This document shows, one piece after another, positions 1,247 to 62,288 of a stretch of DNA of 64,000 bases. The stretch lies in assembly GCA_000934665.2 (NCBI GenBank), contig KZ538362.1, positions 1 to 64,000 on the forward strand, given 5' to 3'. The translations under genes were made by a program, and so were the position numbers. Source of the stretch: Catajapyx aquilonaris (lineage: Eukaryota). Under the pieces are notes generated by a model. That model ran no database searches. It was not told the DNA's origin and saw nothing but the letters and a program-made list of their open reading frames with translations. Each line of letters opens with the position of its first letter. Position 1 is the first letter of the stretch.

Positions 1247-2369
1247 AAAATATGTTGAAACATGCACAAGGTGGACAAACAAACTTTGCCTTCTTATAAT
1301 AATAGAAATTTGTGTACTCGTACATTATTTATTCTACCAATTAAGACACCAATTAAACAGAAACTGATGACATATTTTATACTGGCAAATTATTAGTTAT
1401 GTTCATATCAATTTCCAAAATTTAGGTTCCGACTATAGTTCATCGACACATGAAATCATTTCCAAAAAAAAAAAAAGGTTCGGTTTTAGCCCGGTTTTCC
1501 ACGAAACGCTGCACATGACTACCTTCCAATACCTGCTGAATCTAATCTTAATAAAAAAAATAATTTACAAAATATTGAAAAGCCCTGCAATTCCACTTTT
1601 AAATTAACTCCCATTCAAACCAACCTGCGGGATTCAATCTGACCTATGAAAAGCTCGTTTTTTTTTCTCTCTCTCTCTCCTTAAAACCCGGACCATGGGG
1701 GCTACCTGTCTTCTTTTCAATCTTCCTCATGAGTGGTCCAAATTTTCCGTACATTTTGACCATCCCCCCCCCCCCAAAGCCTAAAACTTCTCCAACTAAA
1801 CTACCTCCCCCCCTCCCCGCCATCCCCTACTTTAAAATGGGTACTTCAAAGAGCCCTTATCTTGATCGCCGTAGCTCCACGCACTTGATCCGAGGTGGGT
1901 GGCATGGAGGGGGGGAGGGGCTTTGGAATGTTTATGCCGCTTTGATGTCGTTCCACCCTATCCATACACCACCCATCCCAACCAAGGCCCTAGGGCGGTT
2001 CTAAATTTTGGTGGGGTAGAGCTTCTGCAAACTTTCTTGGGGAGAGAGGAGGAGGAGGAGGAGGAGAGATGGGGGGAGATGGGGTAGGGAGGTTTGAAGG
2101 ATGGATGGTCACCACCACGACTTGGGTTTTGGGTAAAGCCAGATTTCAGGTACCCAGATTTGGATCTGGTTTTAAGGGGCGTCAAGCGGATGGATCAGAC
2201 GAGAGAGAGAGAGAGGGTATTCATGAGAGGCTGTTGAAAGTGGGTGAGGCCTAGGAGGAGGCTAGAATGTTTGTAGTCAGTGAAGAGACGGCAGTAGTTG
2301 AGGCTAGCATGAATAAATAGCCACATAATTGACAGTATGTATCGAAATATAATTCTAAAGCATCTTATT

Positions 2370-2930
2370 TATTAATTAATAACTATCTTGAAAATAAAAA
2401 TATAGCTAAGAAAATAAAAAATGGCTAAGAAATAAATAAATGAATGGATAACTATATTGAAGATAAATAACTAGCCAAGAAGATTAAAAAAATCGCCAAG
2501 ATAATAAAAATCGCTACGAAAATAAATAAATAAATTAATAACTATATCGAAAAAAACATAAATAGCTAAATAAATAAATAACTATCTTGTAAATGATAAA
2601 ATAACTTGCTAAATAAATAACTGAATAAGTAAATAAATAACTATCTTGAAAATAAAATAACTAGCTAAGTAAATGAATGAATGAATGAATGAATGAATGA
2701 ATGAATGAATGAATGAATGAATGAAAAGCTCTCTTAAAATAAAATAAATAGCTAATACATAAATAAATAAATAGCTAATACATAAATAAATAAATGCCTT
2801 GAAAATAAAATACCTAGCTAAGTAAAAATATATGGCTACAAAAATAAAATAACTAGCTAGCTAAATAAATAACTAGCTACGTAAACAAATAAATATCTTG
2901 AAAATAATATAACTAGCTAAATAAAATAGT
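2370..2930. repeat. AT-rich degenerate tandem array with (ATGA)n at 2672-2724
   Basis: Recurrent AAATAAATAACTA(G/T)CT units. Confidence 0.85.
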
Positions 2931-3101
2931 ACATCACGCAATATTTAAGTCTACTGGCATTTACACGATGAGGGCATAATTTTAATGTTATATTTTCGTA
3001 TTATATAATTGGTTACATAATATTAACAACGGTTGACTGTGATAATTATATAACTGAGATTACATTTTATAATGCTTTATTTGCTAATGGTCAAAGAAAG
3101 T

Positions 3102-3347
3102 TTCGGACAGTTATCAGCACTCTACAGTCCGTTAAACGAAAGAACGATCTGACGTCTCACCAGCTTTGTTTTCTGAGCATGCGTAGTAGTATTCTTGCAG
3201 AGCGATTCGAGGAGGTGATAGGAGGTAAGAGCCTTGTGGAGGCGGGGTTGTACATGACGTCAGATCGTTCATTCGCTTAATGGACAGCATGTTGAGCGGG
3301 TTTTTCTTCCAGCTTCCACCTTGCTAGAGTTCTGATAACTGTCCGAA
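3102..3347. mobile_element. MITE with outer and inner inverted repeats
   Basis: TTCGGACAGTTATCAGCACTCTA pairs with TAGAGTTCTGATAACTGTCCGAA; inner pair at 3127-3156 and 3256-3285. Confidence 0.75.
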
Positions 3348-3450
3348 GCATATGCTATTGGATATCAGTAGTCATTGACTGCAACATGAGATGTGTTATT
3401 TGACTCGGACATTGTTATCATAAAATCAATCGCCAAACCCCCATTTTCTT

Positions 3451-3640
3451 CCGCCATTTTGAATCCTAGACATCATTAGTCGCATCAACCGTCGATCCCA
3501 TTCATCTTCCCTCGAAACACCAAATTAATAAAAACCTTCCCTCCGCCATTGTTAGTGATTGATGATCCTAGTCTCAAACAATGCCACTATCTCCCTCAAA
3601 ACTTCATCTGTGAATCCCCTCACCCAATCACCGCCATTTT
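3451..3640. promoter_or_regulatory. Three co-oriented CCGCCATT (YY1/Pho-type) motifs
   Basis: At 3451, 3543 and 3631, about 90 bp apart; function is inferred from motif only. Confidence 0.3.
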
Positions 3641-7867: not shown

Positions 7868-7875
7868 TACTATCA

Positions 7876-8829: not shown

Positions 8830-9830
8830 GATCAGCCGATATATCGAAAATCGATACTTTTGTTACCTGTATTGTCTCGATCAGTATGAATCAGCGGATA
8901 TATCGATATATCTGGCTGTTTTGTGCCTCGATCAATATCGATATACATTTATCAATATCGATCACATTTCCCAACATTTTTTGTCGTGATTAGTTTCAAC
9001 CAGTCGCAGTCGATACATCAATATTTCTAGCTATTTTGTGTCGAGTTCAATATTGATATATCGATAATAATCGACATTTCATGATATTTTATGTCGCGTT
9101 CACTATGAAACAGCCGATATATCGATATTATTGCTATTTTGTGTCGCGACCCATATAGATATATCGATAATTATATTTCCTGATTTTTGGGGCGCGATTA
9201 ATATCGATAGCCTTTATTTCATGATATGTTGCATTTGGTATTTTCGTGCCGCGATCAAGTATCAGGCTGCCGATATATCAATATTCTTGCTATTTTGTGT
9301 CGCGACAGGTATCGATATATCGATAATGACATTTACTGATATTTTTGTGACGAGATTAATATTGACATCCATTATTTCCAGATATTTCGTCGCTGTCAAT
9401 ATCGATATATCGTTAATCTACATTTTCTGGTGTTTTTGTGCCGCAATCAGTATCAGTCGGCTGATATATCAAAATTTCTAGCTATTTTGTGTCGATATCG
9501 ACAGATATATCGATAACGACATATCCTGATATTTTTGTGACACAATTGATATCGATATCTGTCATTTTCTGATTTTATGTCTACATTTCTGGTCTACATT
9601 TTCTGGTATATTTGTGCCGCGATCAGTATCGGTCAGCCAATATATCGATATTGATCCAACAGTAAGACAAAATAGCAAGAAATATGATATATCGCATGCC
9701 TGATACTGATCTCTATCGATAACGACATCCTGATATTTTTCTGTCGCGATCAATGACGATAACAGATATATTATTATATTTTTGTCTCAACCAATATCGA
9801 TACATCGATAACCGATATTTCAGGTTATTT
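8830..9830. repeat. Degenerate tandem array rich in ATATCGAT palindromes
   Basis: Recurrent GCTATTTTGTGTCG and GATATATCGATAA; 14 exact TATCGATA counted by eye. Confidence 0.9.
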
Positions 9831-10412
9831 CACACGATAGAGCAGTTCATTTTGATCCAACTCTTGACTGATCACAAATTGAGTCCCAAGCACCCTACAA
9901 AATATGTCTCCCTCAAGTTTAATCCTTCACTCCACCAATTATAACTTCACCTGCCATCCTGTGGACTCAATGTCCTCTGACGCCACTCTGTCAGCTGGTG
10001 GCAGGGTCTCAAAGCACAAAAAGAGCCGTTAATTGTACGCTCCATCTGGTGACTCCAACTACGCAACCTTGACTCCAAGAAAAGAGGGAAAAACTGAAGG
10101 GTGGAAAAAGTTTTGAAAGGTGGCAAAAACGGTGGTAACGATTTTCTGATGGCAAACGAATTCTGGGTGGCAGCAGTAGGAAGAAAACGGGAAAGGATTT
10201 TGGATCACATTGGCACATGCGGAGGGAAGATCCCGTCGAGGGGAAAAAAAGGGAAGGGTTAAGGGAAAGAAAAGAACGCACTTAGAATTTATGAGAATGG
10301 AACCCATTCCGTTGGTTCTAGGCTTTTGGCTCCAGGTGTTTGGCTGTGAACGGTTAGACAGACCTGTAACGGTCTAACCGTCAATCAAAGAACCAGCAGG
10401 AATAACCTACTA

Positions 10413-12150: not shown

Positions 12151-12939
12151 AACTTCATGATTGAACCACTCTTAGAGAATGAGTCTCTTACAATATGATT
12201 TTCATACTCTTTTTAACTTCCCTTACAAACAACCCTCTTCCTTCTCCTTTAAAAACTGGGAACTTATTCCAGTTTCTTAATAGATTTTCGTGCTCTATCT
12301 CAGGTGGAAATCAGGAGCTGAGAGAGCACAGAACTCTCGAGACGGTTCATTAGGCAATGAAGGAGCTGATTAGAATTTTTATTCCGCCTTTTCCTTGATA
12401 GACTTTCCGTGTCGTCCTCTAGGGGGTGTTTTTTCTGCATCAATCGAGTTTGTCCTCACACGTGGAGGAGATGCAACTCTTTTCAACCAAAATTTTCTAT
12501 GGAGCAACCTTAAGATTTTTTTCATTTTATTTTGAGGTTTTGGCCTCGAATGTGAGTCAAGTTTGTGGGGGGAAGGGTGGGGAGAAGAGTCAATTTACAT
12601 ATTGCGCAGTAAGTTCATCTCGCGCCATTTTGAAGCTCCAGACGTTTGGTCTATTGAAAGTCTAATGCCTGCAAATGGTAAACACGCTTCGTAAAAAGTT
12701 TGCGGAGTTTTGAAGTGAGGAGAAAATAAATTTTGCAGGGATTTTGGTACTGCGAAGGACAAAACGTTGAGGTACGATGGTGCCATGAGATTCAACAGGG
12801 TCAAAATATGGCAGAAATTAATAGTTTGGAAACTGGGCTATCAGAGCTGACCCTACAACGTCAAATAAATCGTGATTTAAAAAACCAATTGAACGGGCGT
12901 GTCCGAGCAAGTCTGGACCATTTGTGACAAGTTTCAGAC

Positions 12940-13510
12940 CTGGAAAGCGTTTCTACAATTGATATGTTGACACCATGCGATACTACATATAGAGACGAAT
13001 CTAACGGTGCACACATTTGCCTCGTAAAATATTACCAGGTGTAGTTATCACATCTCGAAGGTTTAACCGTTAAAGAAAATCCGTTGGAAAGTGTGAGGAA
13101 GTGGAAACATTTTTAAAAGCCTGTTATATGAACTTCATAAAAATTAGTGAGGCCACAGATTATTGCCAATTGCTATTCTGGCTCATAGTCTTTTAACCCC
13201 ATATGTATAACCCAGTCTTGCATGATGAACTTATGACTTGTTTCTGACCAGGCCAAATTTTAAATAATTGAAATATTGACACCATGTTATACTCTAAATC
13301 TAGACGAATCTAAAGATACAAACATTATTCTTGTAAGATATTACCAAGTGTAGTTATTACGCATAGAAGATTTAACCGTTACAGAAAATCCGTTGGAAAG
13401 AGAGTCAGTGTTGAAAGACTTCAATAGAAAGTAGTCACAGACCACATATTATTGACAACAGCTCTTCTGGCTCATATCCATAGTCTTTTAACCCCATATG
13501 TATAGCCAAG
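12940..13510 (+). repeat. Two diverged ~310-bp tandem units, probable DNA-transposon remnant
   Basis: TTGACACCATG...AGACGAATCTAA...TTTAACCGTTA.AGAAAATCCGTTGGAAAG...ATAGTCTTTTAACCCCATATGTATA occurs twice. Confidence 0.75.
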
Positions 13511-14269
13511 TCTGGCTTCACATCTCCTCACTTGTTGCTTGAATCCCCATGATAAGAAACTTGGACAATTTTAAAGGGGTCCGACCAAGAACAAAAACCG
13601 AGACACGTGTTGGCTTCTTTCTCTTCTCAACTCCCCCATCTTGAGACGCCCGCTGCAAATGGCCGTCCTCGTAAAAAGAGATGCGAAAAGGAGCTGCAGA
13701 TAATCCAGCTCCATTTCCGCCTCCTCAAACTAAATCCCCGAGAAAACCTCTATCCAACAGAAATGAACCTTCCAGTTTCTAAAGGGAGTAAGGCAAGTGA
13801 AGACACCTCAAAAGAAAAGACTCTTCTTCCAATCCCTAGACCCCTTTTCAGATGGAGGACCAATTAAAGGTGTACTAACCTAGTGGCTCGACATAAATCG
13901 ATCTAGAATTTAATATCGGTCGGTAGATGGAGGGGTTTTGCAAGGCCCAACTTTCGACAGTGGTTCCCCGAGCTTACTTTAAATCTTTAGAGCTTCCGCT
14001 TGCAATCTTTACTGCTCCAGTTTGCGCAAAAAGTGTCAGGGGAAACCGGTACAGCGGAGGGGAATTACCCAAAGTTGGGGGAAAGTATAGAAGGGGGAGC
14101 TGATAGGGAAATGCAAGGTGTTGCCAGAACTCGCTGTTATCGTGGTCCAAATCGGAGGCAAGTCTGGACAGGTACAAGGGCACGAAAGTTGTGGGATGTA
14201 TTTGTGGCTTGTTCGTGATTAGATAAATTTACGCAAACTTAAAGTGTGAACATCGTTTTTTTGGGGGTC

Positions 14270-15839: not shown

Positions 15840-16880
15840 AACGGTCGTAACGGTTATAACGGTCGAACTTGCATTGTCATGCTACTACCAGACTTTTCCG
15901 CAGAAACACCTATAAATAACCAAAACTGTACGGGCATATAGATAAACACACTTCTATGCATTAACCCTTGACCTTTGACCTGGCCCATAATTCAGAAAAC
16001 GCCAGTGCAAGCTCACCTAACTGCCATAACGGTCGAAGTTTACTCTCGGTCATGTTGCTACTGAAATTATTTACAAAAAAAAACTCTCTTAATAAGCATA
16101 ACTCAGACCTTTGACCCTTGACCCGACCCGACCCAGCCTTCAAAGAAAGCGGCCATTTGAGATAACGGTACGGTTATAACGGTCAAACTAGCATTGTCGT
16201 GTTACTACCAAATTCTTTCGCAGAAATACCTATATATAACTAAAATTGCATGGCAATATCGATAAGCACACTTCTATACCTTGACCACTGACCCCTGACC
16301 TAACACATAATTCAAAAATCGCAAGTTCGAGCTCACCTAACAGTCAGATAGGTCGAATTTTCACTGTCGGTCATTTTACAATAGAAATTATTTTCTTAAG
16401 AAACATAACTCAGATCTTTGACCCTTGACCCGACCAAGCCTTCAAAGAAACCAGCCATTTGAGCCCATCTGACGGTCATAACGGTCCAACTTGCACTATC
16501 AGCTCTAAATAAGCATAACTTTCTGGCAGTAAGTACAAACACACTTACATGGCTTGACCTTTGACCTTCGACCTGGCCCATCTTTCAAAAACCGATAGGT
16601 CGAGCTCAACTGACGGTCATAACGGTCATAACGGTGGTACTTTAATTCTCGATCATGTTTCTACTGAAAGTCTTCACAAATAAATTCTCTTAATAAACAT
16701 AAGTCAGACCTTTGACCCTTGACCCGACCCGGCTTTCAACGAAACCGGCCATTTGAGCTCACCTCACGGTCATAACTGCCGAATAAACATAAAGAACAAA
16801 CCCATTCCTTGACCAGTGACCCGTGACCCTTGACCTGTAGCAGATTTTTTTTTGAAAAAACTAGCGGTTCGAGCCCACCT
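15840..16880. repeat. ~300-bp tandem units rich in TGACCTTTGACC and AACGGTCATAACGG
   Basis: CATAACTCAGACCTTTGACCCTTGACCCGACC recurs at ~16100, 16405 and 16700. Confidence 0.85.
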
Positions 16881-18900: not shown

Positions 18901-19717
18901 GGCTCAACGCTCAACACACAACTGTCACACCTGTAACACTCGGGTGAAGTTAGGCTAAGCTCTAAGGTTAGGTTAATTTAAGTTAAGTTACATGATTAAA
19001 ACTGGTTTTATTCCTTAAAATTAATTTTTAATGCGCTTCCAAGTTATGAAGTGACATTTCCAGCTACAAAAGAAACTCGACTGTGACAAATTGCGATTTC
19101 AAAATTTCTATTCCTGAAAGACACTTGATTAGGACACCTTCTTTACCTATAGTCAAGTGTCCTTTTTTTGACCAAAAATTTTTGAACCTCTGGTATCCCA
19201 TGGAGTCAGGTTTGTTAGTTAAGGAAACTGGGTCGAGAGTCTATGCATCATGTTCAGGTATCTATTGAAAAGGCTCAGATCAGGTGCACAGCGGTGCCCT
19301 GCCCAAAAACCTCAATGAAAAGTTCCCCCCTACCAAAAACATCGATCTGATATCGAATGACATGGGCCAAAAGGTAGGAAGCCATGATAACCATTAGGTG
19401 TGGAGGCTTTCAGGTGAGCCTAATTGCCACGTGGCATGTCATGGCGTCTGTTTTTCAGGTGGAAAAGACTGTTGATTTTGAGTAATTAGAGATGGGGAAC
19501 AATGTGACCATTTAACAGTGGCTGGTAAAAGGCTATGGAAAGTTGCGAGAGATGCAAATTTGCGGACGCAACTGTGATACTAAAATTTTAAAATGACATT
19601 TTATACAATTTTAACAAATTAAACGTAGTTACACACTCGCATTTTATCCATTTCTTTATTTTAAAAAAATGCAGCTATAATTTTTCGACGTCGTTGTGGG
19701 CTCTGCAAAGTTGCGGG

Positions 19718-19922: not shown

Positions 19923-20804
19923 GCTTGCCGGCTCTGCCAAGTTGCGGGCCCTGAAAAGTTGCAGGCTCCGCAAAGTTGCGGACGATAGTCCAATAGTAAA
20001 CGGTTATTAAATTTAAAAAATTAATGTAATTTTAACAAGTTAAACACAGAATTTTATACAGGTATACACACATATACAACTGTATACATTTCGTTATTTG
20101 TTTAAATAAATTTGGCGTAATTTTCGACTTGGTTTAAACCAAGTCAAATGACCCTCTCTCCCCATAGCGTGAGGTGAGGCCCCGTAAATGGCGTCGCGAA
20201 ACATCCGAACCTATTTGGTCCCTGATTTGTTCAGGTCACGCGAGGCCATTTTTTATCCACCTCGTGTCATTTTGGTTCCGAAACAGTACAGCCAACCCCT
20301 AACCGGGAAAAGCAAATTATTTATTCAACCCCCCCCCCCCNCCCCCCTTACCCTACCCCCACCCCCACCAAAACCCAAACCCCCCTCGATATATTAAAGC
20401 TGACCTATCCTTAGAACCGGGTTTGATTATTAGGCCCGCATTCCTTGATGCAATATCGGGTTTTGCGGTTACGGCTGGTTCTACCGAATTATGGCCACGA
20501 GTGCTCCATTATCATAATGATTAGGGAGGAGCAGGGGGAGGGAGAGGCGGGGGGTAGGGGGAGGGGAGGACGAACCTTTACTAATGGGAGCATCGCCAGC
20601 GCTTGAGATATTGAAGTGTGCGTTTCATAAATGTGCTAATAACTATCGTCGGACGCGCAGCTTCAAGAGCTGGGGGTTTGGAGTACCCGTGGAGTGGTTC
20701 AACATTTCATGCGTGGGTTCCGTGGGTATTGACTGGGAAATGGGTTTTTAGCAGGATGGACGTTGCTACATTTTGGAAGAGGTGGAAGGGGCACGTCAAC
20801 GCCA

Positions 20805-21490
20805 GATTCGCTAATTGCTATCCGCTATTTGGCGAGTCGTGGATACTTTCTGGCTTATCCTATATTAATACCATGAGAATGGCACTTGTGAAACCCGGTT
20901 GTAACATTTATCAGATTCATTCATTCATTTGCTATCCGCTGTTTGGCGAGTAGCGGCTACTTTCTGGCTTTAATGCTATTAGTACCGTGAGAATGGTCAT
21001 TGTGGACTTTGGTTGTGAAGTGTATCCGATTCATTCATTCGTTCATTCGTTCGTTCAATTTCTATCCGCTATTTGGCGAGTGGTGGCTACTGTCTGGCTT
21101 AAACGGTATTAATACCGTGAGAATTTGCATTATAAACCATGGTTGTAACGTGTATCAGATCCGTTCGTTCATTCGTTCGTTCGCCGATACAATTTCTAAC
21201 AGCTGTTTGGAGAGTCGTGGCTACTTATGGCTTAAAAGCTATTAATGTCACGAGAATGGGCATTGTGAACCCTAGTTGTAACGTGTATCATAATCATTCA
21301 TCCATTCATTCGTTCGTTCGTTCGTTCGTTCGTACGTTCGTTCGTTCGTTCGTTCGTTCGTTCGTTCGTTCGTTCGTTCAATTTTTATCCGTTATTTGGC
21401 GAGTCGTGGCCACTGTTGGCTTAAACACTATTAATACCGTTAGAGTGGTCATTGTGGACCTTGGTTGTGAAGAGCACTAGATTCATTCAT
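20805..21490. repeat. ~120-bp tandem units with an expanding (TTCG)n tract
   Basis: TATCCGCTATTTGGCGAGT...GGCTTA...TATTAATACCGTGAGAATGG repeated about 5 times. Confidence 0.9.
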
Positions 21491-26360: not shown

Positions 26361-27974
26361 TTGCAGGGTAGGAAAGGGGAAATATGTTTGGTTGTTTCCA
26401 CTAGGGTTTATGAACTTGGAAAACCAGTTATTGCATATGTGTATAACCCTTTGAGGCTGGGAGTAATTAGGATCAATTTTTTGTGTGTACTGTACTGGTA
26501 TATGTACAGACACGCCTAGTTTTTTTCTCGTAGAAATAATATTCCGATGTATGATGACACAGAGGGTTTACCTACAGCTAGTAAAAATGGAATAATTGAT
26601 GAGGTGAGCCTGTGAGCCTATCAGACCATTGCAGCTGTATCTGTTACTATTACACCCTGTGAAAGCCACACAGTTGCGTATACAGTCAGGGTTGAAAAAT
26701 AGTGCGATAGTTTCCATAGGCTACTATTTAATATCCGTTTGATTTTCGAATATATGACAAAAGGACAACAGGATTCTAAAATGTAAACTAATATTTGATA
26801 TTAATTTTTACATAAATTATATGCGTAAAATATTTAAAATTAATCATGACCTGTACGTACGTATATAATTATAGTTATTAAAAATAAATATTTATTGAGG
26901 ATTAATTATTATGGCGGCTTTTGCCACTGTGTGCCCAATTTTAATATTTAGATTCATTTTGCAGATTAATTTTAATTAATTGTAGACTTAAATTATATGA
27001 AATTAAGCATACCCAGTATAACTACAGTTAGTATAAACAAATATTTGTTGATGATTAGACATTGCAGATTTAGCCACTGTTTGGCCTATTTTAAAATTTA
27101 AACTCATTTCTCAGATTAGTTTTTAATAGATTCTACACACAAATTATTTTAAATGAAGCAAATTAGCAATGGGTATGACCAGTATGTATAATCTGTATAA
27201 TTATACAAGAAGCTATTCGAAACAAAAAAATGTACTGAATATTAAATTTTGGCCGATTTTGCTCTTCATATGCTAATATTTTTTTCCACAAAAATCAGTT
27301 TTCGACTTTTTCTCATACATTTGCCAAAATATGTCGTTTATATGCAAATAACTGCCAATTGTCGCATCAAAATTGACTTTTAATCAGCACATAATTGGCG
27401 GGCCTATTAACTATTAGCAAAAATCACTCCAGTTGTTATAACACGCCTAATTAATAACAATTAACAAATTCCATAATTGCAAATTACACGTCAGGTTGCT
27501 TTAAAAAATCGCCAATTTGAAACAAATTAGTTGAATTAAAAAATGGCATCACAAGTATGTTGTTCATATGCAGTAACTCATCTTGTGCAATGCAGATAAC
27601 GCTCTTTTTTTCCTACCAAAAAATCTCATCTTAAACTTTGAGTTTGGCCGCAGTTTGAGAGACAATCACTTTATCATATCGCGCATGACTTGGAATACAG
27701 CAAGTGCTAATCACCCTGTACAAAAAAAAAAAACTTTGCAGGGTGGGGACCTTGGCCCGCTTTGTTATTCCAAACACTTACTTAGTTCAGTTTACACACA
27801 TTATCTAGCTCTATAGCTGACAAAAAGTGATGATAGTGCTGGAAAATCGTGGTAGTCATATGTGCAGAAAATGCTTGTCTGTATTTAGTGGTGTCATTAC
27901 GCACTATTGGTGTGTGTAATATTGAGAAAGGGGTTCAAAACGCAAATTGTTCACCGAATGAGTAGTTTTAGAAA

Positions 27975-29010: not shown

Positions 29011-29127
29011 TATACTGGACAAGTAAATTTCTCTTGTCACAATTGGTTCTCAACTACCTACCCTCGTTCTGACCCTCACACGACTGACTACAATCTCAAG
29101 CTTCCACCCAGGACCACCACAAATCGT

Positions 29128-29143
29128 CAGCGCCATCTAGTGG
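29128..29143 (-). promoter_or_regulatory. CTCF consensus-like site
   Basis: CAGCGCCATCTAGTGG = reverse complement of CCACTAGATGGCGCTG. Confidence 0.5.
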
Positions 29144-37143: not shown

Positions 37144-37899
37144 CGTACCGGAGCCCCAAACATGGCGTCTCCAACCGTCATCCCAGCTTGCTCCCAATCC
37201 CCGCCAGCCGTCGCCACCTGCTTCCGCACATGCCGTCCATAGCATGAATCTAGCCTAACGATCGCATAATTGCCATTCAAATGATGGTATAGCTCTGAAT
37301 CGAGGCCCCATTACTTCTATAGACTCCAGGGTACTTTGGGACCTCCCTTTTCCCCCCAAAATGCACTGTACATTTCACATACAGAGCTCCGTTATGCCCG
37401 TTTTTGAAACATTTTGGAAACGGAACTGGACCGGAGTGAAACCTAGCTGAACTTTTGGGTCACAATTCAGTTTCCGGGTCCATAAATTGCGCACATTACA
37501 ATATCGGAGGTTCTCTCTAGCTCTGCTAACCTCCCCCTACTCCCTACCCCAGTTCTCCCCGCCACATTAAGTGAGGGGAGGTGGGAATGGGCTTGATGAA
37601 AGAGTTCGATAAAGCGTTAACACGGGACAAGTTGAATTATTAACCCGAAGAGTTATTGCAACTCATCAGCGGAACCGAAACTTTGCGAGCTGTTTCGCCC
37701 CAGGGAGAAATCAGGGGTCCAAAAATCCTTCCGGGTCCGCACGTTTGGGCTATTTGATGACGTCGAATTGTTCCTATAAGCAAAGTTTTGAACTAGAGAG
37801 AGGAACGGAATTACCACGAGTGTGTACATTACGGAAAAGGTGGGTTTGTTAATTGCGGATGAGCAATTTCACTAATTCCAAGTAATATTGAACATGTAT

Positions 37900-38640
37900 C
37901 GCTGAAAAATTCTAATAGTTAGTCATTTTAGTTATCTGTTTGATTTTTTAAAAGTTAAATCAAAATTACCGGTAGTTATTTGTTTGATTTTTAAAAAGTG
38001 AAATCTAAATTAGTTAAATGTTAATCCAGATGACTATTATTTCGTTTAATTTTTTAAATATTTTCTTATTGTGAGCAAATGAATAACTGACAGCGAATTA
38101 CTATATTTAATTTTAGAAAATAGATTTGTGAGCAAAATAATAACTGACATCTAATTACTTTAATTATTCTTAGAAAATATTTGTGAGCAAAGGAATACCT
38201 AATACTGTACAATAGCTAATTTGGATTAATTTTAGAAATTTTGTGTGAACAAATTAATAGTTAATGCAATTATAATTATTTCGTCTAATTTTAGAAATAT
38301 TTTCTTATTGTGAGCAAGTGAATAACAAATACAATAATTCATTTATCTTAGTTTTAGAAATATTTTTGTGAGCAAAGAAATAACTAGAGATGATTTTTTT
38401 GACGAATGCGACCTAGTGCGCACCTACACTCGCGCAAGTCCATTGTTATGAGAACAACGTTGCCACAGTTATTCCTCAGGTAGCCTCTAAGGTTCGTTCC
38501 AGAACCTAGGCAACATCGCAAATATTGGCCATATTTCGTAGCCTACAATATATTTTAGAAATATTTTGGGGAGCAAATGAGTAACTAACATAACTAATTA
38601 TTTCATTTCATTTTAAATATTTCAGTGATTAAATTAATAT
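37900..38640. repeat. AT-rich ~55-60 bp degenerate array
   Basis: TTTAGAAATATTT...TTGTGAGCAAA..AATAACT recurs. Confidence 0.8.
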
Positions 38641-43124: not shown

Positions 43125-44799
43125 ACATTTAGTCTTGTAGGGCAATTTGTAATATTTTGCACTATTATAATGACTAGCACTTGACCGTCAAAATACGTCT
43201 ATCATGTTTAGATGGCCATGTTCTAGTAGTTATAGTACGTAGTAACAATACGTAGTAGCAAATTTATCCGAATTGCTCTGTATGGCTGTGCCCAAAGAAT
43301 ATCAGTTTCGTTATTCTTACTATTACTATGACTAGAACATGGTCATTACAATAACTTCTATTGCATTTCGAATGCCATTTTCTAGCCATAGACAGTAATA
43401 TATGGGAAATTCCAAATTTTGAACATATAACTACAGCGCTAAATGTCCATGGAAAATTTTGGCTTCTGTCATCCCAAGGTTTGTTGAATTTTTGTAGCAA
43501 AATAGCTTGACATATATGGCATAAATTCAGTTGTATATATAACTACGAAATCTACTCTATAAGTGGGCCAAATATGGGCCTGATATCTAGTCGTTTAGTT
43601 GAACAAAAAAAATATGCAAACAGGGACTGTATGATTTGGCTAATTTTCGAAAATGGTTTTTTTGTGGGGAAATAACAGACACATAGTGCATGTTTTCATT
43701 TTAAATAATAACTACGATCTAAACTAACACCGGGCTAAATTTCAGCCATGTAACTACTCTGATAGTTATATTTTAAAAATTCGGCAATCTGGCATTTATA
43801 CCTTTAAAAAAATCCCAAAAATCTGCCAAGTTTTGGCTCAAATAACTCAAAAACACTGATTTGACACTAATTTTCACTCCAAAAAAATCCAAAAATCTCC
43901 CAATTTTGGCTCAAATAACTCAAAAACACTGATTTGACACTGATTTTCACTCCAAAAAAAACCTTCGCCAAAAATGGCCAGAACCGAACACCGCACAAAA
44001 TTATCAATATTTCTTTCAAATTTTCAGCAACAATGCACCGTATTCAAATAGATCTTTACAATAACAGTACGAAAAAATTGAGTTATTCACACACTATCTC
44101 TCCATTATTTTTTCTATCAACATTCCAAACTTTTTTTTTAAAAAACTATGAGCCCAGTTCAAATATTAGATCCTATGTAATTTGACCTCATTTTTATTTT
44201 GGAGCTCCGTGCAAATCATATTTCAGGCTCATTTATAAAACCGGTCTCAAAGCAACAATCGACATTTTATTGCCATTTAAGATCCGCTCCTAGCTATCCC
44301 ATAAAAAGTGATTACTCCAACGCGTCACATTTCGCGTATTAAGATATTGCATTGTCTTTTTTTCGGTCCAAAAAAAACGAATAATTGCGACATAAAATAT
44401 AGTACCGGTACTAGAACCAATCTTTTATCTAGAGCAATAAAAAGTTTACAAGTCTTTTTTTTTGTGTGCCACGACCTCTAGGGACTATAATTTTGATTGA
44501 TGGTAAGGAATCAAACCGCGTTTCATTTGCTGTTCGATCGGGGTAAAGACCAGGGTTTTAGGTTTAGGTCGGGGCGGGGAGGGGGGGGAGGACTAATTAG
44601 AAGGGAAGGGAAAATGTTTAGTCATTTGTATGTGGTTGGGTTTGATGTGGGTCATTAGCAGGTTTTAAGGATGAGTTTTACAAGTTTTCTTATGGGTTAG
44701 GATTATGTAGGTTTCAAGGTGAGAAGTTGTTGGATTTTATAGGTGATTGATCATATCGGGGGTGATTTGAACTCAAAAAATTGAGGGACTCAAATTTGT

Positions 44800-46910
44800 G
44801 TGTCTGATTGGTCAGAAAATGGCACAGAATTCTGAATCAGTCGGAAAATTTGGTAGCGCGAAAAAAATTTCACTCAAAAGAATTTCACTCAAAAATATTT
44901 CACTCAAAAATTTGAGTTACGTACTCGAATTTGCTGTCTTATTGGTCAGAATATGGCACATAATTCCGAATCAGTCGGGAAATTTGGTAGCGCGAAAAAA
45001 AATTCACTCAAAAATTTGAGTTACGTACTCGAATTTGCTGTCTGATTGGTCAGAATATGGCACAGAATTCCGAATCAATCGGGAAATTTGGTAGCGCAAA
45101 AATTTTTACTCAAAAAGATTTCACTCAAAAATTGAGTTACTCGAATTTGGTGTCGGATTGGTCAGAAAATGGCACATAATTCCGAATCAGTCGAGAAATT
45201 TGGTAGCGCGGAAAATATTTTTACTCAAAAAGGTAACTCAAAAATTGTAACTCAAACATTAATCACTCCAACATTGACAAGTCAAACATTGATCACTCAA
45301 AAAATGATAGTTTGACAATTTGTAACACAACAACTGAGTATTACTTTAAATAACTGTGATCGGATTTGAGCAAAATTATTAACTCAAATCTGTCAACGAC
45401 TTCTGAACAGACAACCGTGTAGCAGATGCATAATATTGAGTATTTGATCGATTTGAGCGATTTTATCGGGAAATGTGTGATCTGGGGAATAATCGATGAT
45501 GTCTCAAGAATTGAGTGATTTGACTCAATTTGCTTGCAAATAGTTTTGTTGTCAAATGATGCTTGCCAATATTTGATTGACAGTTCAACTCAATTTTCAA
45601 GAATTTGCTCGCGACTAAGTTGTCAAAAAGTAGTTGACCAACAATACACTCAGAATATTTTTTGATTGGCTCAGTACGGTTACGTTGATCACTCAAACTA
45701 GCAACAATACTCAGATGTCAAATTTAGAACCTCAACTCAATTTGAGTGCAAACAATGAGTGACACGAATATTGTCAATTTGCACAAAACAGTTTCGACAA
45801 ACTGGATAGAATATTATGAGCGAAAATCGGAATATTCTTACGAGTGAAACTTTCCGCTCGAAGTGCGACAGTATTTTAACTCAATTCGAGTAAAAAGTTT
45901 CCGTTAGTCACACACCAATCCTCAATTTGAGTTAACTGACCTAAACATTCAAAATGACATTCAAATTCCACGCGGCAAATTGAGCTTAACTCGCTCCCTC
46001 CCCCTCCCCTCTCTCAAACATTTTGAGTGACAATACCATATCCAATTGCGCGCAAAGCATTTTAAACTCACTTTGAGTGAAAACACCCGGTGGTCAATCG
46101 CGAATTCGTGTCAAATAGAATGGCAAAGTCAAATATCAAATATATCAAATGACAAGTTGCACCTCACTCACTCGGAAACATTTTTAGTGACAATATTAAC
46201 TCCAATTATTGCCCACTCAAATTAACTCTGTTTGGAGTGAAAACACAAACTAAAATATTATGCGTAACGCCTTTTAACTGTACATTTGAGTGGAAACACC
46301 TGCTATCAAACATTTGAGGATATAATCAAAATCTCACAGAAAATAACTCAAATTTGAGTGAAAACACCCACTGAAATTGTGCGTAAACTATTTTAACTTA
46401 AAAATAGGGTAAAAATTACTGCATATCAAACATTTCAACAAATTGTCAAAAAATCAGAGAAAACTAACTCACTTGAGAGAATACTCGAACTCAAATTGTT
46501 CGCAAACTACATTAACTCAACATTTGAGTGAAACGGCCAGGCTTATCATACATCTAAGCAAGCTATTAAAATCTCCCATAAAATAACTCAAAATTTGAGT
46601 GAAAATACCTGCTTATCATACATTTCAGCAAACTATCATAATTCCCCTGAAAATAGCTCAAATCTGAGTGACAATGCCCACCCAAATTGCACGTAAACTA
46701 TTGTAACTCACAATTTGAGTGAAATTACCTGCTTATCATACATTTCAGCAAACTATCATAATTCCCCGGAAAATAACTCAAATCTGAGTGACAATGCTCA
46801 CCCAAATTGCACGTAAACTATTGTAACTCAAAATTTGAGTGAAAATACCTGCTCATGAATCATTCGAGTAAATTGTCACAATTTGACAGAAAAGTACGAC
46901 GTAACTCAAA
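44800..46910. repeat. ACTCAAA/TTTGAGT-rich arrays (~115-bp units at 44800-45240; ~60/120-bp units at 46250-46910)
   Basis: ATTGGTCAGAA.ATGGCACA.AATTC.GAATCA four times; AACTCAAAATTTGAGTGAAA palindromic modules. Confidence 0.85.
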
Positions 46911-47787
46911 ATGCCCCCGACACCACTGAACCGGCTTGACAATTGGTCCTTTCGAATATCCCGGCACTGTCACACGACACACACACACACACCCACCCAC
47001 ACATGGTACATACCGGCAGCGTCGTTGGCAAAAAGTAGAAGACAAGCGGCCAATAGATACGCCGCAAACCAGGACCATCCGCACTTCCATCCAATGAATC
47101 GCATGTTTCGGCTGGGCATCGGGCCGGTCTATTTTTGTTAACCCCAGGTCATTAGCTAGGTCACATTCACGTGACCTGGCTCATGGTCCCGAGGCTGTAT
47201 CCGGTTAGACATTTGACCTTCACAATTATGGGTAGATATGTTAACTTTTTTTCACAGTTGAGAGGTCAGGGGTTATGGGTCAAACCGCAAGGGGGGGGGT
47301 CAAACACCGTTTTGGTTAAGAGCGTTCTTTTCCCGCCCTGACAGGCAGAGTGGGAGCGGGCAACTGGCGCGCCAACTCGGGACTCACCCCAAAAGAGGAC
47401 TTTGTGACCGACCAATGATGGCGCGAGCCCATCCTCCTCTCCCCACTTCTCCCCCCCTATTCCCTACTCCCTCCAACCCATGCGACTGCGGGCCTCCTCC
47501 TCCTCCTCCTCCTCCCTAAAACCCTGCCCGTAGCCTTAATTCTGATTTGCGCAGCATCAGATATGACATCAAGCAAAGGGGGCGGGTAGCACAGGTTTTT
47601 TTTTAAGGGGGAAGGAGGAGGTGGGAAGAGTGGGAAGGAGGAGGAGAAGGAGAAGATGTCCCTTAGGGTGAGGCTGGATGGTTGTCACCGGGTCTGGATC
47701 AGAGGGGAGCATTTGTTGACCACTCACAACATTGGTAATCATGTTGGATGAATTTTTAAGCTATTAGCTAATAGCTACTACAATAAT

Positions 47788-48186
47788 ACAGTTGACTCCG
47801 GATATAACATACTTCAATGGGCAGCGGGGAAGTCTGTTATAGCCGAGGTATGTTATAATATGCTGATATAACAAACTGCAATGAACTGCGGGGAAGTCTG
47901 TTATAACCGATGTCAGTTATAGCCAAATCGCCACTTTTGCAGCGAATACACATGCTCTCTGCTTTCCATATGCGGATGTGACAGGCTTGAATGGACCGCG
48001 GGAAAAAGTCTACTATAACCGAGGTCTGTTATAGCCAAATCGTCACTTTTGCAACGAATACACATGCTCTATGCTTTCCATATGCGGATGTAACAGACTT
48101 GAATGGACCGCGGGGAAGTCTGTTATAACCGATGTCTGTTATAGCCAAATCGCCACTTTTGCAACGAATATACAAGCTCTCTGCTT
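47788..48186 (+). mobile_element. pogo/Tigger-like left end with ~118-bp internal tandem units
   Basis: Starts TA-CAGTTGACTCCGGATATAAC; GCGGGGAAGTCTGTTATAACCGA units; right end not seen. Confidence 0.5.
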
Positions 48187-49790: not shown

Positions 49791-50394
49791 ATGAATAATT
49801 GCTTATATCCGGTTTCACACTCCAGTTGGACGATTCGTGAGTTGCGACATCTAGTGTTGCATGTTTCCTCTCTGGGTACATTTTAGAATTTCTGTGTGCA
49901 GCAGTGTGAGCGCATGCGTGTGGGTTCCCATAAGTGCGGAGTGAGCGCTGTTGGGCATATTCGGACTAATTGCAGTGGGTTTGCAGGTCGAGACCCAACC
50001 CTCCTAATTTGCGTGGCTTCCGTCCCTCCAGCTATGATAAGTGTGTGCCCGCAGATTCCCCAAAAACCCCTCCCCTCCCTCCCTCCCTCCCTGGTTTAGG
50101 TGGGGAGAGGCGGGGGGGAGGGAGGGTCATAACAGTGGGAGGAGGGGGGGGGGGTTTGCTGATAAGGGCCAAGTTCCATAACAAGTTATCCGGGCGGGGA
50201 AGCTCTATTGCTCTTGTTCACGGGGGCCTCAGAGCAAGTCGTTCGGAAAATGCGGATGTCCAAAAAGTTTTTGGGGAGGAGGTGGGGAGAGGAGGGGGAA
50301 GGGAGGGTTTTTTTTGAGGGGGAGACATACCGGTTGGAGTACGGGAAAGTGGTTATATAACACTTGGTGTCAAGTATTACAGTCAGAAAAAAAA

Positions 50395-50640
50395 ATTCGG
50401 CCAAAATATTTTCGTCCAAAAATTTTGTCCAAAAAAAGTTCGTCCTATGGAATTGTCCGAATAATATTTGGTCCAAAAATGTTCATTTATCGATATTTTG
50501 TTTTCGTCCAAAAATATTTCGTCCGATGGAATATTGTCCGAATGACATTTGGTCGGAAAATGTCCATTTCAGACATTTTGTTATTGTCCGATGAAATTTT
50601 GTCCGACGGAATTTTAGCTCAATCAACCGTTTCGTCCAAA
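50395..50640 (+). repeat. TT(C/T)GTCC(A/G)A-module array
   Basis: Related, in opposite orientation, to GGACGAAA arrays at ~55880 and 56420-56965. Confidence 0.75.
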
Positions 50641-50649
50641 CGTCGTGTG

Positions 50650-51035
50650 AGGCTACCTGCTTTATAAACAGTCGTGGGACAGCCTAGGACACGGCTAGTC
50701 TGTGTAAAGAGTCGTGAGACAGCTCAGGACGAGGCTAAGTCTGTATAGGCAGTCGTGGAACAGGCTAGGACACGGCTAGTCTGTGTAAACAGTCGTGAGA
50801 CAGCTCAGGACGAGGCTAAGTCTGTATAGACAGTCGTGGAACAGGCTAGGACACGTCTAGTCTGTATAAACAGTCGTGGGACAACTCAGGACGAGGCAAG
50901 TCTGTGTAAACAGTCGTGGGACAGCGTCGGCGCGGCTAGTCTGTATAAACAGTCGTGGGACAGCCTCGGACGCGGCTAGTCTGTATAAACAGTCGTGAAA
51001 CAGCCTAGGATACGGCTAGTCTGTATAAACAGGCT
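50650..51035 (+). repeat. ~39-bp minisatellite of the GAGGCTAG family
   Basis: AAACAGTCGTGGGACAGCCTAGGACACGGCTAGTCTGT about 9 times. Confidence 0.95.
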
Positions 51036-51785
51036 ATGAGCAGCCAGAGGGGTCAGGTGTGATGACTTAATGAGGTCAAATCTCATCCTTTTACATCCCG
51101 CTCACCTGTAACCACCACTCTCTAAATCATTGGGTCTTCCAGCATTCAAATCACTTCATATTTCCACTCCTACCGCTAGATAGCCCATCGCCTCTCCTGC
51201 CATCTACCGGCCTCAAATTTTCTTTCTAAAAAAAAGTTCCTTTTAATTACCTGTCCCTCCATTTTGTATCCATAACGACCCACTTGGCACATCCAATCTT
51301 GAACTTTTTGAGCAACAAAGGTCTCTTCTTTTGGTGACCAGATAGTTAATAACCATTAAGTCTAGATGTTCTTAGTGGGGGGCGACAAAAGGGTCTTAAA
51401 TTTTACTCCTACTTTTCTTTCTTCTTTTTCTCCTGAACTTTAGATTTCGAACCCACTGGAACTGTTCCAATTTAATCAGTGGATTGGCCAAAGGTGCCAG
51501 CAAGTTCTAACCAGAAACCGGATGGCCTAACGACATCAGCGCCAGTTTCAATCATTGGCTTAGGACTTAAATGGAAAGGAAGACGTACAAATGAAAATTA
51601 GCTGGGAGCTTCTGTCTAAAACCTAGGACCAGAGTGAAAATCACTCAGTGAAACCGGTTGTAAATTATGAATATGGGCCATTTTGTTGTTAATTTTGTAT
51701 ATTATTATCGTAGATCAGCTTAAATATGACTATTACGTGTCTGTGTTATTGGAGAGTCAGGCCTGGGTAGAGGCTACCTGTTTTG

Positions 51786-53102: not shown

Positions 53103-53778
53103 CATATTGTAGATAGGTATTTACAACACAAACTCCCATAGTTTCTTCTTAATATCAGATTATACAACTGGACCAATCATGTCAGGAACAACAGTTTCAC
53201 ACTATAGTTCAGTATTCCCCCGCCAGAGCGTCTATAGTGCTAATCTCCAATCCCTGCATCCCTTCTCTTATCTCAAGACATACGAAACACCCGCCATGAA
53301 AAGTATGAGATAAGCCAAATGCCATTTTCAAAAATATGGAAAAAAAACTGCCTTGTCAAAATTTGCATTTTATCACCCCCTTCCTGATAAAAACCTTTTT
53401 TTTGGGGGGGGGGGGGGCNCCTTTCGATCTGTTCTTTCCTCGGACACAATGGAAGGGAGAATTCCCCCTCCCTAAAAAAAAGTGGGGAGTGGATAGGGGG
53501 GGGGGGGGGGGTCAAACGAAATGGCTGGCGAAGACTCTAATTGCATACCTTCAATGGAAGTCAGCCAATCCTCGACACTGTTAGAGCGAAAAAAGTAGAA
53601 ATATATGCGGATAAGATAGATGGGGTTAGGCAGAGAGGTAGTTGGCCTTTTGTTCCCGATTCTAAAAGATTCCTAGAGACGACGGAACAAGGAATGGTGG
53701 AGTGGTCCAAGAAAATTTTGGAACGAGGAACGAAAGTTATGGAGGACGAATGATTTGTGGGGTTTTTGGGTGTGTTTT

Positions 53779-56400: not shown

Positions 56401-56419
56401 CATTGGATGGATTTCAACA

Positions 56420-59635: not shown

Positions 59636-60868
59636 TCCTACTTACGAAAAGAGTGTAATACGACTCCCCATGTCACTTTCCATCTAGACTATGACAAAAC
59701 GCAGCTTCTTTTGGGCCCATCTGTAAGCCATGTTCGCAAATTAGTCATCACTCTCAAGCTTGCAAGATAAGAAACTAGGCGAATCCGCGTCAGCAAAGCA
59801 GAGCGGAAAGAAAATATCGCTGGAGCCATATCATATCCGCAGTAAGTCTAGCAAAAAAGGGGTGGAGCCAAGTTTACAATAAAAAAAACGCAGCGAGCGC
59901 AAAAAAAAAAAAATCTGCAGTAAGAAGCTGGCATATCAATCTCAAGCATGTTGGGTCCTGCTCTGGGATTCCAGGAAGGTAAAACCAGAAGGCGGGAATA
60001 AATCTGGATTTTTGGACGTTGTCAGATTGTTGCGAAATAAACACATGACAATGAAAGAAAGCTACAGAGTTACTTAGTCTGATGACTTGGAGAGTCTTCA
60101 AGCAATTTGCTTAAAACTGAGTTTTTTTTTGTATGTGGAAAAATGTAATAATTTGTCAAAAAAAAATACAATTTACATATAACATAGTGGAATGTGTGTA
60201 AGTGCAACGATACATGGAGTCATTTTCATAGGGGGGGGGGGGATAATGTCGAATTTTGAAATCCGATTTTGGGATGTTTCATTTATTCGGTTAGCTGAGC
60301 TCTCTTGTAAAGCCTGCTTTTGTCTGGATGAATAAAACCGATGGGAATTTGACCTACTGGTTATTATTTTTGGTTATTTTATGTATTCAAATAGAATTTT
60401 TAATGCGTAGAAATTACGAAATCACAAAAAAAATTAGCAAATTCAGCGAAACTTTAAATATCAAAATTTAAATATTCATTTTGCAGGAAATTGGTATTTA
60501 AAATTTGTCAAATTTTTGTTTTTATGGTTATTGTGATTTTTGTTGAAAATATTAAACTTGTGCAAAAAATTGAAATAAAAAATTTCAAACATTGATGTTG
60601 ATAACAATTAAGGCAAATTAAAATAGTGGAAGACAACAATGTGATAGTTTACATGTAATTTATTGTTGCATAATTATTCACAACTTTCTTTGTGATTGGT
60701 AAGTTAAGGCGAACTCAGGGCGAACTTCTAGGAATAGTTCTATTATGTCACTTATCCCAGTTCGACTACTCTAGTTCTACTATTACTCACATTTGTTCTT
60801 CCCCACCTTATTTCCACTCAATGTACTCAAAAAAAATAACTCAATCTGAGCAAATATTTCTCAAAATT

Positions 60869-61117
60869 ACCGAAGTAGGTTGGTGTAAAGAGCGCGCCTG
60901 CTAATCGGGAGGTCCTGGGTTCGAATCCCGGGGCCGGCGACCCTGACTATGGTTTTCTGTGGTTTTCCATGGTTCCCCCCAGGACAATTCCGGGGTCGTT
61001 TCCGTAAAAATAGGCCACAGCCTCTTCCATCCCTCCCTATCCCTGGTCCCATTCAATGGTGGTAATCCACCCCCCTAAGGGAGCCAAAGGCTCTATCACG
61101 GGGTACGATAAATAAAT
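60869..61117 (+). mobile_element. tRNA-derived SINE family 1, shorter variant
   Basis: ACCGAAG start, CTGCTAATCGGGAGGTCCTGGGTTCGAATCCCGGGGCCGGC, shared body, 3' TATCACGGGGTA. Confidence 0.9.
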
Positions 61118-61439
61118 GAATTTTAAAAAAACTCTCAGTTATTTCAATTTGAGTTGAGGTGTAACTGACATGTGTCTCAAATTTCATCAATTTTGTCAAA
61201 ATGGAGGAATTGAAGTCAAATGAACAATCATTACATGGAAGTATGTAATTAAACTCAAATATGATCCATTTACACGACTTTCTATTTGAGTTCATTTTAA
61301 TTATATTTAAATCGAACGTGTTTACTATTTAACGTACAGTATCTCAAAAGGCATCAGGATGATTTTCACCTGATTTTCACTCATCAGAGAGCCAATACTC
61401 AAATTGAGTGAAATAATACACATTTCAGAGTTAAGTACA

Positions 61440-61760
61440 ACCAATTTATTCATTCATTCACTCATTAATTGGCTGGACTTAAGTTTAGAGTGTGTTTGGA
61501 ATTGACTTCCGGAGGAGGGCTCGGACCATTCATATTTCACTCAATTTGAGTGATGACTGATGAGTCAACATTCATTCCCTCATTCATGAATTTATTGGCT
61601 GGACTTAGGTCTGAAGTGTGGCGTCCGGAAGGGGGCGTGGACTACTCATATTTGAGTATTGACTCAAATCGCTCAAATTGAGTGAAATATGAATAATCCG
61701 CGCCCTCTTCCGGTCGTCACCCCCCAAACAACACTTCAGACTTAAGTCCAACCAATAAAA
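61440..61760. mobile_element. Inverted-repeat element with a duplicated left arm
   Basis: TTTATTGGCTGGACTTAGGTCTGAAGTG (61591) pairs with CACTTCAGACTTAAGTCCAACCAATAAA (ends 61759); an earlier arm copy at ~61468. Confidence 0.65.
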
Positions 61761-62288
61761 CACTCAAATCTGTTCTATTTTACCCCCCCAACCTTTCCAG
61801 AAAATTAATAGCCTGGAGGTTTTAACTCCCAAAAAACCCTGTTTTTTGAAGCAAAAACCTGCAGCTTGTCCTGGGCTTTTGGGTGTGTTGATTTGCAAAT
61901 GAGAAGGGCGTTTCCCTAGCTGAATTTCTGGCGGTGGTTTGCAAAGCGTTAAGCCGTGGAGGGAACCCCCCCTCACGTGCGCCCCCTGAGGATTAGTCGC
62001 CCCCTACCCTCTCTACCCCAAAGCTCTACCCTCTCAACCCCAGTCACTGCACTATTCTACTGGAAATCTCAGAATGGAACACTCTTTGCCAAACTACTTT
62101 TTTTTGGCAAAAGAAAGTTTCTGTGGGGGGGGGGGTGAAATCTAAACAAAGAGACAAGTAGTATTGTCCCAAGGAGAAACACCGTAACTCCAAAACTAGT
62201 AAGGGTGAAAGTCGCATGCATGTCCTACACTAATTCCTACTGACTCAGAAGGGATTAGTGCAGGACATGCATGCGATTTTTACCCTTA

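Follow-up and report, generated by a model that had tools for sequence, protein, structure and literature searches.

A strand polarity of unique DNA around repeats in a 64-kb window of Catajapyx aquilonaris

Does single-copy DNA that is broken up by repeats have an orientation, and what have the repeats to do with it? The question is raised by a stretch of 64,000 nucleotides of Catajapyx aquilonaris DNA (contig KZ538362.1, positions 1 to 64,000 of the forward strand), which was analysed whole and is called the window hereafter. A sequence-only reading had picked out 31 non-repetitive islands in it, said in most cases to carry C or pyrimidine tracts on their left and G or purine tracts on their right, to recur about every 2 kb, and to be each the centre of a divergent process. 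We report that the compositional polarity of these islands is real, and that repeats are found preferentially at the 3' end of the G-rich strand. All results rest on this one 64-kb window.

A preference of repeats for the 3' end of the G-rich strand

The C-left, G-right polarity was confirmed. GC skew was higher in the right half than in the left half for 28 of the 31 islands, with a mean difference of 0.35, a value reached by none of 5000 random placements of segments of the same lengths (mean 0, standard deviation, sd, 0.046). Purine skew rose from the left to the right half in 27 of the 31. Three islands are exceptions to the polarity (10810-11160, 39440-40080 and 61760-62140). When aligned on their switch points, the islands contained 23-33% C on the left and 24-33% G on the right, over some 400-500 bp, with an AT skew close to 0; the skew of this meta-profile lay between -0.1 and -0.4 on the left side, and between +0.2 and +0.4 on the right one. 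Of the runs of at least five C, 32 were on the left of the switch and 8 on the right; for runs of at least five G, the counts were 9 and 44 respectively. After removal of all tracts (C or G runs of at least 3, purine or pyrimidine runs of at least 8), the difference was still 0.17, with 24 of the 31 islands positive (null sd 0.035). Half of the effect thus survives, so that the skew is not a matter of low-complexity tracts alone.

The islands had also been described as non-repetitive and devoid of primary homology to each other, and both descriptions were correct: self-BLAST covers 0% of the island bases, and Smith-Waterman scores between islands were alike in direct and reverse-complement orientation (p = 0.24, strict scoring, 31 units). 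That they might form one family was rejected on this absence of direct homology, no common ends being seen. Neither conserved island ends nor junction motifs were seen among the islands and the repeat junctions. Word depth, which is the sum over contigs of the DNA runs X1 and X4 at a likeness of at least 80%, and is no formal copy number, these two runs being possibly the assembly's own source, was about 20-32 over the eight islands in 9600-21600, while four other bins, made of repeats, ranged from 120 to 16,640. Four DNA runs from one sample contain the stretch as contigs, and a run X5 matched only repeat bins of the stretch examined, which says nothing on expression. The statement that the pattern reads the same on both strands is true as a mathematical identity of the measure, and for this reason adds no evidence.

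The choice of the islands was itself partly compositional. Over the whole window, skew switches upward and downward are equally common (29 versus 37 peaks), a balance that arises because the measure telescopes along the sequence, and 14 unique segments that had not been listed show no polarity. Given this composition-guided choice, the polarity was retested without the coordinates of the islands. Briefly, repeats were masked by self-BLAST and Tandem Repeats Finder (TRF), composition not being used, and cutting them out left 38.0 kb of unique DNA with 60 junctions. Around the 44 repeat blocks flanked by at least 300 bp of unique DNA on each side, skew was lower in the right flank than in the left one in 35 cases (means -0.053 and +0.157; binomial p = 1e-4, Wilcoxon p = 2.3e-5), and purine skew agreed in 33. 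The left flank was G-rich in 34 of the 44, and the right flank C-rich in 29. Unique blocks lying between repeats, also 44 in number, comprised 13 that run from C to G and 1 that runs from G to C, the partial classes being balanced (12 versus 11). The C-to-G blocks have a narrow size range (median 785 bp, interquartile range 752-882).

The same was seen in the repeat-excised sequence. With four window sizes, right-minus-left skew (D) was negative at 43-47 of 59-60 junctions, with a mean D of about -0.2 for an overall sd of the measure of about 0.30. Between 49 and 65% of the G-to-C peaks fell within 100 bp of a junction, compared with 28% expected and with 5-19% only of the C-to-G peaks. Classified by kind, the rule was obeyed by 21 of 26 tandem-only blocks, 10 of 12 mixed blocks and 4 of 6 blocks with only dispersed or terminal inverted repeat (TIR) elements, the last being too few to judge; for TRF arrays taken alone the result was borderline (19 of 32, p = 0.054). 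It is therefore a robust observation that repeats have G-rich DNA on their left and C-rich DNA on their right, and that almost no C-to-G switch is interrupted; the preference of repeats for the 3' end of the G-rich strand is shown. The islands are what is left between repeats, which is why they begin with C-rich and finish with G-rich DNA. The flanks on either side of a repeat are statistically independent (table 21/13/8/2, Fisher p = 0.45), a result more in keeping with separate polar blocks than with a single symmetric element. As far as our literature searches went, this polarity is apparently undescribed in this form: the pattern was not found in the literature searched on flank skew at transposon insertions or on polypurine and polypyrimidine framing of enhancers.

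The recurrence of islands about every 2 kb was not confirmed as a period. Intervals between islands range from 695 to 4737 bp, and the best periodogram peak (1730 bp, power 369) remains below the 95% null maximum of 404. The islands are only mildly regular: the coefficient of variation of their spacing is 0.49, and segments placed at random without overlap give 0.70 +/- 0.11 (P = 0.011). In the repeat-excised unique DNA, skew oscillates with a period of 1116 bp (power 2306 versus a 95% null maximum of 733), a peak about ten times the local background and of the same period in both halves of the sequence; autocorrelation of this skew is -0.14 to -0.17 at 450-550 bp. The peak depends on the mask, being absent with a mask made by self-BLAST only and weak with one made by TRF only (1030 bp, ratio 4.6). 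This oscillation of about 1.1 kb is taken here as no more than a lead.

Unique blocks, joints and repeats of the window

Unique blocks that run from C to G, and repeat blocks placed at G-to-C joints (with the skew of their left and right flanks), are listed below in forward-strand coordinates, with the islands that the blocks hold.

1315..2370: unique block, C-to-G; holds island 1650-2250; tracts are (CT)n at about 1665, C at 1765-1830, G at 1894-1920 and 2040-2095, and (GA)n at about 2200
9653..10410: unique block, C-to-G; island 9880-10330; G-quadruplex (G4) motif at 10240-10265, + strand; word depth about 30
18905..19715: unique block, C-to-G; absent from the initial list of islands
20073..20812: unique block, C-to-G; island 20150-20800; centre of 138 bp between poly-C 20330-20386 and the G-rich tract 20525-20570
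27607..27968: short unique block (362 bp), C-to-G; absent from the initial list
29024..29940: unique block, C-to-G; island 29050-29740
34217..35098: unique block, C-to-G; island 34380-34990
36075..36854: unique block, C-to-G; island 36240-36660; (CCA)10 microsatellite at 36426-36455
37144..37928: unique block, C-to-G; island 37150-37860
43964..44770: unique block, C-to-G; island 44280-44760; half-difference of 0.75, the largest among the listed islands
46897..47798: unique block, C-to-G; island 46910-47720; (CCT)n at 47486-47506 and a GGA-rich tract at 47605-47650, about 100 bp apart
51033..51784: unique block, C-to-G; island 51070-51660; within the TIR-bounded element 48999-52004
53103..53778: unique block, C-to-G; island 53200-53780; poly-G tracts at about 53400 and 53490
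8873..9652: local tandem-repeat block; G-to-C joint (+0.33, -0.31)
12922..13516: local tandem-repeat block; G-to-C joint (+0.21, -0.21)
15850..16776: local tandem-repeat block; G-to-C joint (+0.21, -0.23); word depth about 28, and so without close relatives among the matched contigs
31926..34216: two tandem arrays, of 140-bp and 144-bp units, the last copy of the second being inverted; G-to-C joint (+0.45, -0.22)
50388..51032: local tandem array of 40/81-bp units; sharpest G-to-C joint (+0.52, -0.37)

The window has a GC content of 41% and a CpG observed/expected ratio of 0.87. Tandem repeats crowd it (157 TRF rows), together with several miniature inverted-repeat transposable elements (MITEs) and TIR-bounded composite elements. 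It looks non-coding: its longest open reading frame (ORF) in the standard code has at most 205 codons, alternative genetic codes opened no frames beyond chance in the window, and a scan of the 64 kb returned no match to Rfam families or tRNAs. The repeats, being the CpG-richer part, look younger than the unique DNA: their CpG observed/expected ratio is 1.08, compared with 0.80 for islands and 0.81 for the remaining unique DNA. Two of the five N bases seen in the stretches that were read, at about 20342 and 53420, are located inside long poly-C or poly-G runs, so that tract lengths are uncertain in the assembly.

Among the dispersed repeats, the MITE at 10411-10689, with a second copy at 28731-29017, has terminal inverted repeats of 115 nt that are 92% complementary; its word depth of about 10,700, compared with about 30 in neighbouring bins, indicates a very abundant family. 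The top word depth of the examined stretch, about 16,600, belongs to a CGAT-rich dispersed element at 19716-19922, to which copies at 52725-53102 and 62317-62783 are related. The word ATCGAT occurs 1.31 times per kb in repeats and 0.11 times per kb in islands. Of two scans of metagenomes with 20-nt words of the high-copy repeats, the first gave 0 matches and the second gave two loci, L001 and L002, which were dismissed as chance matches, without BLAST similarity to the window.

Two composite elements, 48999-52004 (about 3.0 kb) and 55964-61130 (about 5.2 kb), have inverted-repeat ends of 160-225 bp with about 82% identity, and each encloses several different tandem arrays and 2-3 of the listed islands. 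A relative of the terminal repeat of the second is found at 24421-24675. Arrays with an inverted last copy, foldback-like, occupy 33032-34216 (144-bp units) and 40151-41118 (units of about 135/269 bp). A transposon-like segment at 7213-8321, whose GC content reaches 61%, has direct repeats of about 80 bp (7240-7300 and 8180-8260), a long internal hairpin at 7876-7983, and sub-repeats of 10 and 34 bp. Long microsatellite-like arrays of TTCG, TTCA and TTCATTCG recur at 411-978, 21305-21379 and 30021-30662, the first of them facing an inverted copy at 1042-1131. At 53779-53858 there is a GC-rich palindrome, nearly perfect and about 44 bp long, with GGCCGGCGCGCCGGCC at its centre; immediately after it come a (CCAACTG)7 microsatellite and another short hairpin. 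Finally, each unit of a 104-bp tandem repeat at 44891-45231 contains an inverted CCAAT box (ATTGG) beside AAAATGGC, a promoter-like pair.

Explanations of the polarity

Each island might be the centre of a divergent process, as had been proposed. The data would be accounted for equally well if the process had its centre at the G-to-C joints that hold the repeats, and nothing in the window shows the islands to be regulatory elements.

The explanation that we favour, tentatively, is a neutral polar rule, by which the 3' ends of G-rich-strand blocks would be the places where young tandem arrays originate or survive. The window would then consist of old single-copy, non-coding DNA, made of strand-asymmetric blocks of about 0.5 kb each, either pyrimidine/C-rich or purine/G-rich, owing in part to decayed C, CT and CCT or G, GA and GGA tracts. 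Younger CpG-rich repeats, mostly tandem arrays unique to the locus and in some cases MITEs, would interrupt this old DNA. The rule is identical on both strands, and thus needs a process running 5' to 3' on both, for which replication, divergent or convergent transcription, and end resection are candidates. The most attractive one may be DNA synthesis meeting a G-rich template prone to form G4s or triplexes: whatever the direction of the fork, the leading strand would enter G-rich template at G-to-C joints and leave it at C-to-G switches. At the joints, tandem duplications could start or grow through stalling, gaps and error-prone restart, and insertions might perhaps be favoured as well. The islands would be a by-product in this neutral scheme, and not functional centres. 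Deamination of single strands exposed at stalled forks was considered as the origin of the flank skew, and is excluded because AT skew (p = 0.35 for a difference between repeat flanks) and GC content are alike in the two flanks.

Polar effects of this sort are on record. In the parts of a Caenorhabditis elegans study cited here, nascent-strand synthesis stops at a G4 motif or within 3 bp of it, and deletions of "distinct polarity" occur in the wild type too (PMC4654259). In yeast devoid of Pif1, the G4-containing CEB1 minisatellite is unstable in leading-strand replication, according to the cited part of PMC7063842. The side on which repeats are found in the window, 3' of the G-rich strand, is the one that G4-anchored polar instability requires (right-flank skew below left in the 35 of 44 cases given above).

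Several points weigh against the neutral rule. G4 motifs are not adjacent to repeats: their median distance to a repeat on the 3' side is 260 bp, and the 3' side is the nearer one in 11 of 16 cases. Runs of at least six G are likewise at a median of 274 bp from repeats, with the 3' side nearer in 22 of 39 (p = 0.52), and flank skew is flat over about 300 bp, without a peak at the repeat edge. The outcome of a G4 block set out in the cited part of PMC4654259 is deletion with occasional templated insertion, not the birth of an array. The rule does not explain the regularity of block length behind the 1.1-kb oscillation, nor why C tracts pair with G tracts at short range (see below). Its evidence also comes from a single 64-kb window.

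The main rival, which we consider possible and somewhat more doubtful, is that the window would contain divergent functional non-coding modules, namely C-to-G units of about 0.8-1.1 kb that tolerate insertions only at their convergent ends. Their activity might be bidirectional enhancer- or promoter-like transcription, producing G-rich RNAs prone to form R-loops or G4s, or that of a replication initiation zone. The sign of the switch, from C-rich to G-rich, matches replication-origin skew jumps as well as divergent CpG-island promoters (for the latter, cited part of PMC3787257). Whole units are free of repeats in the proportion of 13 C-to-G to 1 G-to-C, and their sizes are narrow. Close to the switch, G4 motifs are oriented outward (8 of 10 for the + strand and 6 of 12 for the - strand), outward motifs being present at about eight islands, and strong C tracts and G tracts pair at short range in C-to-G order (8-10 versus 3-5 pairs). 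The two arms of a block are weakly correlated (Spearman 0.26, p = 0.09), while flanks facing each other across a repeat are uncorrelated. Islands are richer in GC than the DNA outside them (46% versus 39%), and the 1.1-kb oscillation of skew in the repeat-excised DNA also speaks for such units. The 13:1 ratio, the unit size, the outward G4 motifs and the pairing of C and G tracts would be explained more naturally by divergent modules than by the neutral rule.

Short words give a mixed answer on these modules. The YY1-like word AATGGCG occurs 9 times in islands, against a median of 1 in composition-matched permutations (rank 2 of 420), AAATGGC ranks first of 420 such permutations in islands, and CCAAT second of 30. 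However, the count of AATGGCG is only 9 versus 5 when other unique DNA is the reference, its orientation is not consistent (7 inward, 4 outward), and no motif common to the islands was found with a maximal-order Markov model (highest z 2.6). A further word, GGGGGTSAAA, was tried as a lead and led nowhere (4 matches, + strand only). Poly(A) signals and splice donors had no orientation bias beyond composition in the islands.

Other properties expected of functional centres were not found either. The islands are not CpG islands, their CpG observed/expected ratio being that of other unique DNA (0.80 and 0.81), and there is no AT skew, unlike in mutational skews at origins. No coding sequence and no positive functional signal were detected in the window. 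A density of about 30 modules in 64 gene-free kb would be unprecedented, and nearly all of the unique DNA would be involved. The regular spacing on which the initial proposal was built is not supported. Under the OGRE/G4 rule, initiation takes place 3' of the G-rich element, which would point here to the joints and not to the centres of the islands.

A stronger form of the divergent scheme, which we find unlikely, is that the single-copy DNA of the region, and perhaps of the genome as a whole, would be tiled by units of about 1.1 kb, unrelated in sequence, each consisting of a head-to-head pair of G-rich-strand blocks; these would act as divergent non-coding transcription/R-loop units or as replication initiation zones at close spacing. 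It is equally unlikely in our view, though conceivable, that such units would be defined by composition rather than by a motif and remain free of insertions, with tandem arrays and transposons piling up only at their convergent ends.

Rather improbable, to our mind, is the idea that the polar units descend from a mobile or tandem element, as copies so old that only the composition survives. Candidates would be a foldback or TIR element with C-rich and G-rich arms, a polar element G-rich in its sense strand with a repeat tail at its 3' end, or an ancient tandem repeat of about 1.1 kb. Foldback-like or TIR-bounded composites with internal arrays do exist in the window (33032-34216, 40178-41118, 48999-52004 and 55964-61130), and the narrow unit size, the 1.1-kb oscillation after excision and the presence of arrays at the 3' ends of G-rich strands would suit such an origin. 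The comparisons between sequences argue otherwise. Decayed palindromes were rejected, as island arms are no more complementary to their own partner than to arms of other islands (Smith-Waterman 20.4 versus 19.8, p = 0.49); terminal inverted repeats around the repeats were not supported, complementarity across a repeat being barely visible (p = 0.07). The units lack direct homology and conserved ends, the signs of the two flanks are independent, and there are no relatives at a likeness of at least 80% among the matched contigs. Moreover, composition would not outlive sequence similarity unless some force maintained it.

Might the polarity be a local accident, in which ordinary patchiness coincides with repeats in one window and was enhanced by the eye of the reader? 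The balance of upward and downward switches, the lack of polarity of the unlisted unique segments, the borderline TRF-only test, the non-significant test on G runs and the mask dependence of the periodicity all lend themselves to this view. The masks were blind to composition, and it is with them that 35 of 44 flank pairs (p = 1e-4), classes of 13 versus 1, and 43-47 of 59-60 junctions at four window sizes were obtained, so an accident seems quite unlikely.

Least probable of all is that the islands would be exons, lying between the C-rich end of an upstream intron and the G-rich start of a downstream one, with repeats in intron interiors: this fits the geometry (in the cited part of PMC4691745, 16% of structured human introns have G triplets where they begin and C triplets where they end, and the pattern would be strand-independent, keep repeats off the exon and its flanks, and yield units some 1.1 kb in size), but none of the exon tests run bears it out, since 3-base periodicity within 150 bp of the switches is at background level (p = 0.44), Pfam matched none of the 131 ORFs of at least 75 amino acids in the window and, above the curated cut-off, none of 148 shorter ones around the first 21 switch points (3 weak sub-threshold matches), ORFs spanning switches are barely longer than elsewhere (medians of 94 and 79 codons), donor-like words point rightward on the right arm and leftward on the left one, as composition predicts, without strand coherence along the window, and the arms measure 300-400 bp instead of the 40-200 nt described in the same part of that paper.

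Were the flank polarity genome-wide, it would give a simple and testable rule for the location of minisatellite-like arrays: they would originate, or be retained, where G-rich strands have their 3' ends. The birth of arrays would thereby be linked to a process with strand polarity, for example stalled replication. If, on the other hand, the units were conserved and transcribed, they would form a class of regulatory or initiation elements recognisable from composition alone.

Comparison with known systems

GC-skewed, R-loop-forming CpG-island promoters are known in vertebrates (Ginno et al. 2013, PMC3787257, part cited). The islands resemble them by a switch from negative to positive skew over a few hundred bp, a raised GC content, and outward G-rich strands with G4 motifs. 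They differ in having no CpG enrichment and a GC content of 46% only, in being accompanied by no genes or shared promoter motifs that we could find, and in their number, about 30 per 64 kb.

In mammalian genomes, upward skew jumps at replication origins border the so-called N-domains. The direction of the jump is the same here. N-domains extend over tens or hundreds of kb, along which skew declines linearly, whereas the blocks of the window are of about 0.5 kb; their amplitude is 0.2-0.4 instead of a few hundredths, and no AT skew goes with it.

A third likeness is with the (GGG)m-(CCC)n bridging of introns around human exons (Lin et al. 2016, PMC4691745, part cited). Both have the order C-rich, centre, G-rich, on either strand, with long and variable DNA between a G-rich part and the next C-rich one. 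Unlike in that system, the centres give no exon signal, and the arms are longer, as indicated above.

Foldback and long-TIR transposons also have arrays between compositionally inverse arms, and true examples of them are present in the window. The island arms and the repeat flanks differ from theirs by being not complementary beyond composition, and by the independence of the flank signs.

The last comparison is with polar replication blocks at G4s, as in the dog-1/FANCJ deletions of C. elegans and at the CEB1 minisatellite in pif1 mutants of yeast. There, the known outcome is a deletion of 50-300 bp or the instability of a G-rich array (cited parts of PMC4654259 and PMC7063842), whereas the arrays of the window are mostly not G-rich and lie about 260 bp from G4s, and their birth at such sites would be an extension of what is known. 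What the two have in common is their strand polarity, and the side on which it shows, 3' of the G-rich strand.

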